A DNA stretch of 64,000 nt from Staphylococcus phage vB_StaM_PB50, in sequence record OR770614.1, one strand, 5' to 3'. The translations under genes were made by a program, and so were the position numbers. Numbering within the stretch: the stretch's first letter is position 1; every line of letters starts with the position of its first letter. Positions 2,229 to 5,783 of the stretch are shown one piece after another. The notes beneath the pieces were generated by a model. That model did no database searches, had not been told where the DNA came from, and was given only the letters and a program-made list of their open reading frames with translations.

Positions 2229-5200
2229 TTAATTTGTTTTAATAATTGATGCATCAACACAATATTCACTATCATTTAATTTCATTAAAGGATTTCCAAA
2301 AGTTGTACGTTTATAAGTGTTTATCTCAGATAAAGGTACATTAATAGTTTTATTTTCAGTAACTAATAATAGATTGTCTTCTTCTTCATTATCAATCATG
2401 CTAATGTACATTACTGAATCTTTATCTTCTTTAAATTTAGCTGCGATAACTCCTTTAATTGATCTAGATTTAACTGGTATCTCATCTATTTCAACTTTCT
2501 TAGCTAAACTTTTATGAGTGACAATTAGTACTTTATTTTGACCTGAATCAATAACAGTTGAAGCAACCTTATTATTTTTATTAATTGTAGTATTACTGAA
2601 AATAGCTGATCCGATAGTTGTACGTTTTTGAACTGGAACTAACTCATGGGAGAATCTAATCATATTTCCTTTTTCAGATACTGCAACTAAGTTAAAAGGT
2701 TTCTTAGAGTGTACATTATGAACATTTACAACTTTATCATCTTCATTAAGCTTAATTAAAATTACTCCTGATCTACTAATTTCTTCAACCATAACCATTT
2801 TAATTTTATTTAATTCAGTAGTGACTACAAAAGCTGTATCTGGGTCTTTTAATTCTTCATCAGTTAATGTGAAAGCTTTAACGATATTTTCTTTTTTAGT
2901 AAATCTAGTAATATCTTTACCAAAGTTATTTAATGATTTAATTTCTGGGAATTCGTATACTTTATCATAGAATAACTTACCTTGATCTGTTACTAGGAAT
3001 AAATTATCTTTACTATTAGCGTTGAATATGTTTAGAGGTACATCTCCATCAGATAATTTACCAATACTAATACCTTTACCATTACGTTTCTGAGGTTTAC
3101 TCACTTCAGCTTTAACTTTCTTAATTTTACCCTGTTTAGTTATAATGACCATGAATTCTTCATCTTTAACTAATAAATCTTTATTATCTGATTTAAAATC
3201 TAAATCTGAATATTTAGTAATTCTATTTCTCTTAAGTGTATTTTTATCTTTCTTAATTTCTTTTAATTCTTCCACAATAAGATTTTTTAGTTTATTAACA
3301 TCTTTCATGTATTCCATTTCAGAATTAACTATTTCTTCTTTTTCATTCTTCTCTTCAATAAGTTTATTTACTTCAAGATTATTAATTGTATATAGTTTCA
3401 TATCAGCTACATACGCTGCTTGAGCGTGTGATATATTAAATTTCTTACTAACTGTATCAATAATATCTTCTTTACCTTTACCAGACTTAACAATCTTAAT
3501 TAATTGATCTATATTCTTAGAATCTAATACAACTAGCAAACCTTCTATAATATGAATACGACTTCTTAAATCTTTAATTTTAAATGACTTGATACGTTTA
3601 ACAGTAGACTGTCTAAATTCAATCCATCTATCAAGAATATTTAATAAATTAGTTTCAATTAGTTTATTATTATCTACTAATTTAATATCAAAATTAATTC
3701 TAGAAGTTACAGTTTTAATTTTATATAATTGATTAAGTGCTAAATCTAAGTCTGTTGATTTTGTATACTGCAATATTAGATTAACATTACCTTTTTGAGA
3801 TCCATCAGAAATATTCTTAAGTCCATCTAATCTTTCTTCTTTATAAGCTTCTTTAATAGCTTCAATCATTCTTTCTAAAGTTATATTATAAGGAATTTCT
3901 GTTATTGTTAATGTAGATTTACTTTCATCTTTTTCAATAACTGATCTTAATAACATTGATCCTTTTCCTGTTCGATAATATTTCTCTAGATCATCTACAT
4001 AAGCTTCTCCGCCATAAGGAAATTGTGGTCTAAAATTATTATCTTTAATTAATGTCTTTAATTGTTTGTTAGGATTTTTAAGTCTATCAATAGTAATGTT
4101 AACTACATCATTAATATCATGTGGAGGTAAATCAGAACGATGTCCACCACCACCAATACCAAAACTACCATTAACTAATATATAAGGTAATTTAGCAGGT
4201 AATACCAAAGGTTCTAACATTGATCCATCAAAGTTTTTAACCATATTAACTGCATTATCATTGATATTATCTAATAAATTTCTTTCTGAGAATTTATTCA
4301 ATCTCATCTCTGTATTGTGGTGAATAAAACCTTCAGCCATAAATGAGTGATCTTCAGTATCAACTCTAATTGAGTATACAGTTTCTTCTTCATCTAAAGA
4401 TTCAATAGATTTAACTTTATCAAAATATGTGTTATTATCTAAGTATTTAGATATAAATAATAGTAAGTGATCATTATCTAATATTTCAATACCATATTCT
4501 TCCTCTAATAGATTAAAATTATTTAAGAAATTCTTTCTTGTATTGAATAATTCTGGATAAAAGTAATTAGTCATTTTTCTTTCATCTAACACTTCAGATA
4601 AGAAAGGTATAATTTGATATTTATTAGGTTTATCATCTCTGTACATATTTATTATACTTTCGATTTTATCATTATATAGTTCATCATCTTTAATTAAATG
4701 ATTAACTAAGTTTTTCAATGAATGTATATCTTGTATTTGTAGTCTAAACGTATCAGTACTGAATTCATTTATTACAGAATATATTCCAAATTGAGATAAT
4801 AATACAGATATTTCTTGCATAAATTTTTTACTATAACTTTCTATAATTAAACCGATATTATCTACAATCTCACTATCTTGTCTGAATAATTCCATTAAAA
4901 ATTCTCTTTTATATCCTAAACAAGCTTCAAGAATTTTATCAGGTAATATTTTTTCAGTCTCAATAGATTTCATTAAAATTCCGTATTCAGGATCTAAAGT
5001 ATCTTTAAAATATTTTTGAGATAAAAGTTCTCCCCATTTTCTAAAACTTTCTTTTTCATTTTCATTAAGATTTTTACTTCTAAAATCTTTAAGATCATTC
5101 TTAATCATAGTTCTATTGATTAAGTAGTCTCCTTCTTTAATTTCATCCATTGTTTTCCATTTAAAATCTAATCCTTTTGTTGGATGTTTGATTACAGTTA

Positions 5201-5783
5201 ATAAAGGATGATTTAATGTTGCTTTAATATTTTTACCAGATTCAGTTTCTAACTCCATTACTTTATGTTTACCTGAATTAAAGAACTTACTAGCTTTCAC
5301 TGATTTTCTTCTAAAGTCTTTTACTACTTTATCAATGCTATGTGTAGTATCTAAATCTGTATTAGGTACAATGTCTTTAATACGTCTTAGTTCACCTTCA
5401 GATAATTCCACAATATGATTTCCTGTTAAACAATAACGTGAAGCGGCTGCTGATGCTCCTGTAATAGAACCAAAAGCTCCATGACCTTCAATTAAAGGTT
5501 GGTTCATAGAAAATGGTGTAATCATATTAACCGCAGAATCATAAATACCATCATTACTATGTGGATGTAATATAGTTGTATCACCAGCAATTCTAGCAGA
5601 TTTAGCAAATTTTTTATCTGATCTATAACCATTTTTATACATAATATATAATATTTTTCTTTGAATAGGTTTCAACCCATCTCTAACATCTGGTATTTGA
5701 CGATTTGTATTAATCTCATTAAAATAAATCATCATATTATCATGAACTACTTCTTTTAAATCTTTCTTAAAAATCTCTGCCAT
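2229..5783 (-). CDS. gyrA: DNA gyrase / topoisomerase IV subunit A-like (type IIA topoisomerase breakage-reunion subunit), interrupted by an intein
   Basis: The N-terminus reads RDGLKPIQRKILY...HPHSNDGIYDSAV...GHGAFGS, and the catalytic motif AAASRY|...|TEMRL matches GyrA AAMRYTEARL. The length without the intein is ~810 aa. RBS AAAAGGA plus an ATG start. Confidence 0.9.
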   Translation of the reverse strand: MAEIFKKDLKEVVHDNMMIYFNEINTNRQIPDVRDGLKPIQRKILYIMYKNGYRSDKKFAKSARIAGDTTILHPHSNDGIYDSAVNMITPFSMNQPLIEGHGAFGSITGASAAASRYCLTGNHIVELSEGELRRIKDIVPNTDLDTTHSIDKVVKDFRRKSVKASKFFNSGKHKVMELETESGKNIKATLNHPLLTVIKHPTKGLDFKWKTMDEIKEGDYLINRTMIKNDLKDFRSKNLNENEKESFRKWGELLSQKYFKDTLDPEYGILMKSIETEKILPDKILEACLGYKREFLMELFRQDSEIVDNIGLIIESYSKKFMQEISVLLSQFGIYSVINEFSTDTFRLQIQDIHSLKNLVNHLIKDDELYNDKIESIINMYRDDKPNKYQIIPFLSEVLDERKMTNYFYPELFNTRKNFLNNFNLLEEEYGIEILDNDHLLLFISKYLDNNTYFDKVKSIESLDEEETVYSIRVDTEDHSFMAEGFIHHNTEMRLNKFSERNLLDNINDNAVNMVKNFDGSMLEPLVLPAKLPYILVNGSFGIGGGGHRSDLPPHDINDVVNITIDRLKNPNKQLKTLIKDNNFRPQFPYGGEAYVDDLEKYYRTGKGSMLLRSVIEKDESKSTLTITEIPYNITLERMIEAIKEAYKEERLDGLKNISDGSQKGNVNLILQYTKSTDLDLALNQLYKIKTVTSRINFDIKLVDNNKLIETNLLNILDRWIEFRQSTVKRIKSFKIKDLRSRIHIIEGLLVVLDSKNIDQLIKIVKSGKGKEDIIDTVSKKFNISHAQAAYVADMKLYTINNLEVNKLIEEKNEKEEIVNSEMEYMKDVNKLKNLIVEELKEIKKDKNTLKRNRITKYSDLDFKSDNKDLLVKDEEFMVIITKQGKIKKVKAEVSKPQKRNGKGISIGKLSDGDVPLNIFNANSKDNLFLVTDQGKLFYDKVYEFPEIKSLNNFGKDITRFTKKENIVKAFTLTDEELKDPDTAFVVTTELNKIKMVMVEEISRSGVILIKLNEDDKVVNVHNVHSKKPFNLVAVSEKGNMIRFSHELVPVQKRTTIGSAIFSNTTINKNNKVASTVIDSGQNKVLIVTHKSLAKKVEIDEIPVKSRSIKGVIAAKFKEDKDSVMYISMIDNEEEDNLLLVTENKTINVPLSEINTYKRTTFGNPLMKLNDSEYCVDASIIKTN
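4314..5432 (-). mobile_element. Intein (373 aa) inserted immediately after the GyrA active-site Tyr (gyrA-a site); it carries a degenerate LAGLIDADG-like endonuclease region
   Basis: It begins CLTGNHIVELSEGE (like the Mxe GyrA intein CITGDALVALPEGE), ends ...FIHHN, and is followed by Thr. Removal restores ...AAASRY-TEMRLNKF. The internal stretch LGYKREFLMELFRQDSEI is a degenerate LAGLIDADG. Confidence 0.85.

Follow-up and report, generated by a model that had tools for sequence, protein, structure and literature searches.

A class 1 GyrA-a intein in Staphylococcus phage vB_StaM_PB50 with a truncated, most likely inactive LAGLIDADG nuclease

The gene for DNA gyrase subunit A (gyrA) of Staphylococcus phage vB_StaM_PB50 is interrupted in frame by an insert of 373 amino acids (aa). 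The analysis of a 64,000-nucleotide stretch of sequence record OR770614.1 (hereafter the window) supports the view, from its sequence, that this insert belongs to the class 1 inteins and occupies the GyrA-a site, with the catalytic Tyr117 on one side and Thr118 on the other. Taken as a whole, we consider it highly probable that the element is a GyrA-a class 1 intein whose nuclease is a truncated relic, and that it is fixed, vertically inherited and late in its homing cycle.

The open reading frame (ORF) of the gyrA precursor occupies positions 2229..5783 on the minus strand and encodes 1184 aa. The insert comprises precursor residues 118-490 and corresponds exactly to window 4314-5432 (373 aa, in frame, minus strand), so that the coordinates given in the original prediction for an insertion between AAASRY and TEMRL were exact. 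Its first residues are CLTGNHIVELSEGE, located directly after ...GASAAASRY, and it ends with ...EGFIHHN, which is followed by TEMRLNKF. In a gyrA without the intein the junction DNA would read ACAGGAGCATCAGCAGCCGCTTCACGTTAT joined to ACAGAGATGAGATTGAATAAATTCTCAGAA. The gyrA region is 98.2% identical at the nucleotide level to Machias CPT_Machias_238, annotated as an 'intein-containing DNA gyrase subunit A'. The guanine plus cytosine (GC) content of the window is 24.5%, and neither the GC nor the third-position GC (GC3) of the intein differs from that of the exteins. A feature on the plus strand was discarded, since the plus-strand translation of 4314-5432 contains many stops and the interval does not enclose any plus-strand ORF of 60 aa or more. 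The parts of the gene and of the splicing domain are the following:

2229..5783, minus strand: gyrA precursor ORF (812 aa GyrA plus 373 aa intein), with a Pfam DNA_topoisoIV match of 304 bits and six DNA_gyraseA_C repeats.
5433..5783, minus strand: N-extein, GyrA residues 1-117, whose last residue is the catalytic Tyr117 (AAASRY), aligned with ...AAAMRY of Staphylococcus aureus GyrA.
4314..5432, minus strand: intein, from Cys1 to His372-Asn373, delimited by profiles, by the match to the Mxe GyrA intein and by the Machias 'intein' mat_peptide over the equivalent 1119 bases.
2229..4313, minus strand: C-extein, from Thr+1 (TEMRLNKF…) through the stop codon, placed by the boundary and the S. aureus GyrA alignment.
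5097..5432, minus strand: N-terminal part of the Hint domain, intein residues 1-112, with Cys1 and block B (T72-L-N74-H75); it aligns with Mxe GyrA residues 3-115, matches TIGR01445 and is modelled as beta strands with a predicted local distance difference test score (pLDDT) of 90-98.
4314..4442, minus strand: C-terminal part of the Hint domain, intein residues 331-373, with blocks F and G (VYSIRVDTEDHSF…GFIHHN); it aligns with Mxe GyrA residues 156-199.

Two intein profiles recognized the insert above their curated cut-offs, namely Pfam Intein_splicing (PF14890; 83.4 bits, cut-off 35.8) and TIGR01445 (38.6 bits, cut-off 24.5). A third one, TIGR01443, scored 15.7 in the precursor, with a cut-off of 15.6, and 14.8 on the excised intein. 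The best match in the PDB was the Mycobacterium xenopi GyrA intein (Mxe GyrA, 1am2; E = 2.3e-23 with phmmer), and the alignment takes in the N-terminal 113 and the C-terminal 45 residues of the insert. The profile scores and this match are much stronger than chance could explain. The proposed homology to mycobacterial GyrA inteins was thus confirmed, with the same C1, T72, N74 and H75 numbering, and it extends beyond the termini. All the residues for splicing (C1, T72, N74, H75, H372, N373 and Thr+1) are present, and they are kept in all 9 Staphylococcus phages. In the two alignments of relatives, A1 and A2, Cys1, which follows Tyr117, and H75 of the block B TxxH motif (T72-L-N74-H75) are invariant; N74 is invariant in A1 and nearly so in A2; and V352, S354, V357, H372 and N373 are invariant or nearly so in both. 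The C-terminal …GFIHHN/TEMRL provides His372, Asn373 and the nucleophile Thr+1, the latter being the same residue as in Mxe GyrA.

When the exteins were joined, the resulting protein could be aligned with S. aureus GyrA without any gap over the junction (AAASRY-TEMRL with AAAMRY-TEARM). The aligned Tyr is at chain position 122 of the S. aureus GyrA construct in the PDB, and we take it to be the catalytic tyrosine. The nearest phage GyrA without an intein, that of Listeria jumbo phage LPJP1 (43.9% identity), is also colinear and has the empty site MRY/TQMRLNKFSE. Both comparisons place the insert at the catalytic tyrosine, as the original prediction had proposed, and the colinearity of insert-free GyrA proteins with the exteins supports an insertion. 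They also bear on the proposal that the 373 residues are a native GyrA insertion domain that is never excised. Splicing in these phages is predicted rather than experimentally proven, which leaves that proposal some room; however, the insert would part the catalytic Tyr from the next residue, although the two are contiguous in all GyrA proteins that have been characterised; none of the class 1 splicing residues is missing from it; and it shares homology with the Mxe GyrA intein, of which the PDB includes a splicing intermediate. With orthologues that have no insert at hand as well, we rejected the native domain, a reading that now seems hardly credible.

The splicing of the insert is predicted from its conserved residues and from the established chemistry of the Mxe GyrA intein. 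In the first step, a thioester would be formed between Cys1 and Tyr117, which in the second step would be attacked by Thr+1 to give a branched intermediate. Cyclisation of Asn373, helped by His372, would then free the intein, and finally an O-to-N shift would re-form the Tyr-Thr peptide bond and yield the 812-aa GyrA. Splicing must be efficient, because the active site is split by the insert.

The GyrA-a allele is, by sequence comparison, widespread beyond mycobacteria. An exhaustive HMMER search collected 486 relatives, and among the best 150, in which junctions were counted, ~93 GyrA-like proteins show the RY/C…HN/TE junction, with inteins of 150-505 aa. The NCBIfam model NF038098 (GyrA_w_intein) aligns intein residues 153-373 to profile positions 314-537; as 'intein-containing DNA gyrase subunit A' it is an exception model with a cut-off of 1850, and the 535.7 bits obtained make the phage protein homologous to, but outside, that narrow set. 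Other searches were less productive. A word-indexed protein search with the intein gave two near-identical fragments only, and in the viral contigs the spliced extein, used as a single query, found no confirmed relative, while the intein alignment as a query found 80 intein loci, with the GyrA-a junction in one of them only (L011).

The central region of the intein, which lies between the two parts of the Hint domain, is made up of these segments:

5010..5063, minus strand: remnant of LAGLIDADG motif 1, a helix, intein residues 124-141, aligned with LGxxxSEG[YFW] (modelled helix 124-138).
4941..5009, minus strand: deletion scar or loop, intein residues 142-164, coinciding with a MAFFT gap; it is the only low-confidence part of the model (pLDDT 48-52).
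4695..4940, minus strand: retained second LAGLIDADG half-domain, intein residues 165-246, with LAGLIDADG_3 over 175-234, modelled as alpha-beta-beta-alpha-beta-beta-alpha (pLDDT ~90).
4443..4694, minus strand: helical region, intein residues 247-330, conserved in GyrA-a inteins (…IPFL…) according to the MAFFT alignment and the GyrA_w_intein profile; modelled helices 251-330.

In the MAFFT alignment of relatives, the GyrA-a inteins of 405-450 aa carry two LAGLIDADG motifs, LGxxxSEG[YFW] and FLxxLFEGDG. Motif 1 of the phage intein is WGELLSQKY (intein residues 133-141), with Gln139 at the position of the metal-binding Glu and Lys at that of Gly; in the other Staphylococcus phages the acidic position is occupied by N or H. 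Furthermore, the phage intein has no counterpart of the ~75-90 residues that come after motif 1 in the 405-450-aa inteins and make up the beta core of their first half-domain. At residues 178-187 (within window 4872-4919) lies motif 2, FLMELFRQDS, whose Asp186 is kept in all 9 phages. The original prediction had spoken of a degenerate LAGLIDADG-like stretch. The degeneracy was borne out, the motif 1 acid being lost and a half-domain deleted, but the anatomy has to be redrawn: the stretch spotted, EFLMELFRQDSEI (intein residues 177-189), is the second LAGLIDADG motif, in which the Asp is kept. Pfam LAGLIDADG_3 gave the same picture, with 18.7 bits over one stretch (residues 175-234), below the gathering cut-off of 22.5, as against 81-96 bits over two stretches in full-length relatives. 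Compared with an active monomeric LAGLIDADG nuclease, the intein has one acidic motif instead of two, one half-domain instead of two, and a LAGLIDADG_3 score under the gathering level. A canonical monomeric LAGLIDADG enzyme requires both acidic residues and both half-domains, and therefore the nuclease is most likely inactive; judging from the sequence and the model, we infer a relic that is no longer able to make the double-strand break for homing.

The AlphaFold2 model of the intein, built from a 31-sequence alignment (pLDDT 87.4; predicted template modelling score, pTM, 0.89), agrees with this anatomy, with one LAGLIDADG half-domain predicted as complete and the first one reduced to a helix and a loop. 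The order of elements in the model is Hint, helix 124-138, a low-confidence loop (143-155), the half-domain 172-246, which forms one complete alpha-beta-beta-alpha-beta-beta-alpha unit, helices 251-330, and the C-terminal Hint strands. The top Foldseek matches were the nuclease-bearing inteins TliVMA, PI-PfuI, PI-TkoII and PI-SceI, and Mxe GyrA was also found; the Hint fold matched 1am2 and 4oz6 with E ~1e-12 and target-normalised template modelling (TM) scores of 0.79-0.86.

Six unrelated GyrA-a inteins of 320-360 aa (P0021, P0055, P0045, P0070, P0080 and P0143), which come from low-GC and high-GC organisms, were also observed to be without the first half-domain and to keep the second. This suggests that the nuclease is lost by a route that is recurrent and directional, leading towards mini-inteins.

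The insert is present in all nine Staphylococcus jumbo phages, with 65-99.7% amino-acid identity, and the nucleotide identity of the gyrA region is 98.2% for Machias (MW349128), 96% for AH12 and 79-83% for seven further Staphylococcus jumbo phages. Among these phages, the ratio of nonsynonymous to synonymous substitution rates (dN/dS, Nei-Gojobori) was 0.13-0.27 in the central region, 0.14-0.29 in Hint-N, 0.08-0.20 in Hint-C and 0.02-0.17 in the exteins. Free decay of the nuclease remnant was rejected, since its dN/dS within the clade is ~0.2 and not ~1. The closest relative outside the clade is P0003, encoded in a 10-kb metagenomic contig (L091) that shares the order of gyrA then virion RNA polymerase beta, with polymerases 34% identical. 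Its intein clusters with those of the Staphylococcus phages in a neighbour-joining tree. The extein of P0003 is 68.6% identical to that of the window and the intein 36.7%; motif 2 has been lost entirely, and Pfam LAGLIDADG_3 found no match in this sister intein. Identity between the window and P0003 is 48% and 64% in the two splicing parts, and 4-32% in the central region. This low identity shows that the constraint on the central region has been relaxed over longer times. The 'decaying' nuclease of the original prediction has to be qualified as regards the Staphylococcus phages, with their dN/dS of ~0.2.

The intein is read as an old, vertically inherited and fixed element, late in the homing cycle. 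Under this interpretation, the nuclease would have been disabled before the Staphylococcus phage and P0003 lineages split, with slow erosion since, and purifying selection probably maintains the relic, since GyrA could not mature if the insert misfolded. Several points weigh against this interpretation. Splicing and nuclease inactivity are predicted from sequence and a model, not by experiment; within the clade the constraint on the central region equals that on the splicing domain, which free decay would not predict and which leaves room for a retained function, and the identity of the central region (77-85%) is as high as that of Hint (79%); Asp186 of motif 2 is invariant; and the dN/dS values are Nei-Gojobori estimates on short regions of a 24% GC genome, with some dS >1.

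The same constraint could be taken as a sign that the intein is still mobile by means of its own nuclease, the Asp186 half-domain either nicking DNA or pairing with that of a second intein, like single-motif LAGLIDADG enzymes, and so continuing to cut gyrA alleles that have no intein. A dN/dS of ~0.2 in the central region, an Asp186 that is invariant in 9/9 phages and a half-domain that is predicted to be well folded (pLDDT ~90) are compatible with such an activity. However, motif 1 no longer has its acid (Q, N or H stands at that position), the first half-domain has no beta core left, and the modelled motif 1 helix would fill the interface needed for a dimer. In addition, motif 2 has gone in the sister lineage P0003, and no empty alleles were seen among the close relatives (the nine Staphylococcus jumbo phages). 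We therefore regard continued mobility by this nuclease as quite unlikely, and retain the fixed intein with a disabled nuclease.

Mobility could also be supplied from outside. A free-standing HNH_3 endonuclease gene is located at window 7280-7714 on the minus strand, ~1.5 kb upstream of gyrA, and each of the nine Staphylococcus jumbo phages has it at this locus (74-98% identity). In L091, the contig of P0003, a homolog with 41% identity is present (3265-3744), ~850 bp upstream of the intein-bearing gyrA, whereas no homolog of the other small neighbours of gyrA that were tested could be detected in that contig. Such a stable HNH_3-gyrA linkage is unusual for a homing endonuclease gene. It would fit collaborative homing, in which the HNH enzyme cuts the intein-less gyrA loci of competing phages and the intein is co-converted, and the intein-less LPJP1 has no gene between gyrB and gyrA. 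To our knowledge, collaborative homing has so far been described for introns. What speaks for it here is linkage; HNH genes are numerous in these genomes, and the association is drawn from two lineages. A part for the HNH enzyme in the spread of the intein is for these reasons very improbable. Somewhat more broadly, in view of the purifying selection on it within the clade and of the HNH gene kept upstream of gyrA in two distant phage lineages, the half-nuclease remnant might not be junk, the intein being mobilised in trans by HNH or the remnant having been co-opted for a conditional maturation of GyrA, and to this we attach only a small probability. These phages have been reported to propagate inefficiently at 37 °C, and, if conditional maturation were true, a temperature-sensitive splicing of the essential gyrase would fit that poor propagation.

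The surroundings of gyrA contain further signs of selfish elements. The gyrB gene (12213-14564, minus strand) is split into the ORFs 13137-14672 and 12213-12953, with a gap at roughly 12954-13136, and it matches the gyrB of Machias, which is annotated as a two-exon gene; a search of window 1-17000 with Rfam at the gathering threshold detected no intron family at the gyrB gap and nothing elsewhere. Directly upstream of gyrB there is an ORF of 451 aa (15093-16448, minus strand) with NUMOD4, HNH_3 and helix-turn-helix (HTH) domains. In the Staphylococcus phages gyrB and gyrA are separated by ~6.4 kb and ~eleven genes, and this interval holds the HNH gene, a gene for an SNase-like nuclease (6829-7200) and one for an RNase Z-like protein (8310-9170), whereas in LPJP1 (L092, 2604-7433) the two gyrase genes are adjacent and uninterrupted. 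The proposal that the topoisomerase locus is a hotspot for selfish elements therefore holds in part: gyrB is split, HNH genes are found upstream of both gyrA and gyrB, and LPJP1 is clean. It is weakened by the genome-wide occurrence of such elements, introns and homing endonucleases being described as spread over the whole genomes of these phages (bioRxiv 10.1101/2020.12.14.422802).

Two further observations concern gyrA and its neighbour. Downstream of gyrA, the ORF at 422-2107 (minus strand) encodes the N-terminal part of the virion RNA polymerase beta subunit, which in Machias is annotated as a three-exon gene; the gyrA-then-polymerase order is kept in the distant contig L091 (34% identity). 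In Staphylococcus phage LY01, the annotated gyrA coding sequence (L009, 1491-4241) is only 2751 nt long and ends in …SDGVC, most of the C-terminal beta-propeller being missing, a domain that the other eight phages have. The gyrA of LY01 may be short because it is truly truncated, because of a frameshift or through a mistake in the assembly.

The intein itself is already annotated and published for sister phages. A gyrA intein is annotated in phages Machias, MarsHill and Madawaska (GenBank MW349128, MW248466 and MW349129; bioRxiv 10.1101/2020.12.14.422802), MarsHill gp228 is described with an intein between Y117 and T492 and a LAGLIDADG domain match (bioRxiv 10.1101/2020.12.14.422802), its homolog in Bacillus phage AR9, gp044, is reported as intein-less and intron-bearing (bioRxiv 10.1101/2020.12.14.422802), and the DC4 paper gives the same description of the gyrA intein (PMC10638138). 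In the Machias record, the 'intein-containing DNA gyrase subunit A' carries an 'intein' mat_peptide over the same 1119 bases. The inteins of Machias and MarsHill are the same element as that of the window, with 99.7% and 78% amino-acid identity and identical boundaries (Y117/C…N/T). The label 'LAGLIDADG homing endonuclease' used in those papers stems from an InterPro/Pfam match, and in the available portions of their text the half-deleted, catalytically incomplete state is not noted; nor do the corresponding portions point out that the intein sits at the GyrA-a site known from mycobacteria.

Among known inteins, the Mxe GyrA mini-intein (1AM2, 4OZ6) shares the insertion directly after the catalytic Tyr, Thr+1 and the C1/T72/N74/H75 numbering. 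It is the best match among solved structures by sequence, and by fold it comes just behind the nuclease-bearing inteins. Mxe GyrA (198 aa) has lost the whole nuclease domain, whereas the phage intein keeps ~215 central residues, including one half-domain and the helical region, and the host of Mxe GyrA is a GC-rich actinobacterium rather than a 24% GC Staphylococcus phage. The full-length GyrA-a inteins (405-450 aa; NF038098 and many metagenomic GyrA proteins) have in common with the phage intein the site, the Hint domain, the second half-domain and the C-terminal helical region; they differ in having both motifs and a complete first half-domain, where the phage intein has Q for E and ~75-90 aa deleted. 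PI-PfuI, TliVMA and PI-SceI show the same Hint plus LAGLIDADG architecture (Foldseek E 3e-15 to 1e-8), but they are found in other host genes and at other sites, with 9-17% identity, and carry complete two-half-domain nucleases.

As a re-discovery of the intein, the present analysis matters little, and its refinements are of modest value. What is new is, to a modest extent, the identity of the GyrA-a allele, the half-deleted and catalytically incomplete state of the nuclease and the constraint on its remnant. The term 'LAGLIDADG homing endonuclease', as published, claims more than is left, since a half-domain and one catalytic acid out of two have been lost. The element is an allele at the classic site of the Mxe GyrA intein, here in a phage of 24% GC, and protein engineers could take an interest in its Hint domain, which has a Thr+1 junction and is related to the widely used Mxe GyrA intein, but divergent from it and AT-rich. 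For the biology of these elements, it would illustrate cleanly how an intein can come to a halt late in its homing cycle, with fixation and erosion of the nuclease while the splicing domain persists, and the more eroded sister P0003 allows a comparison.

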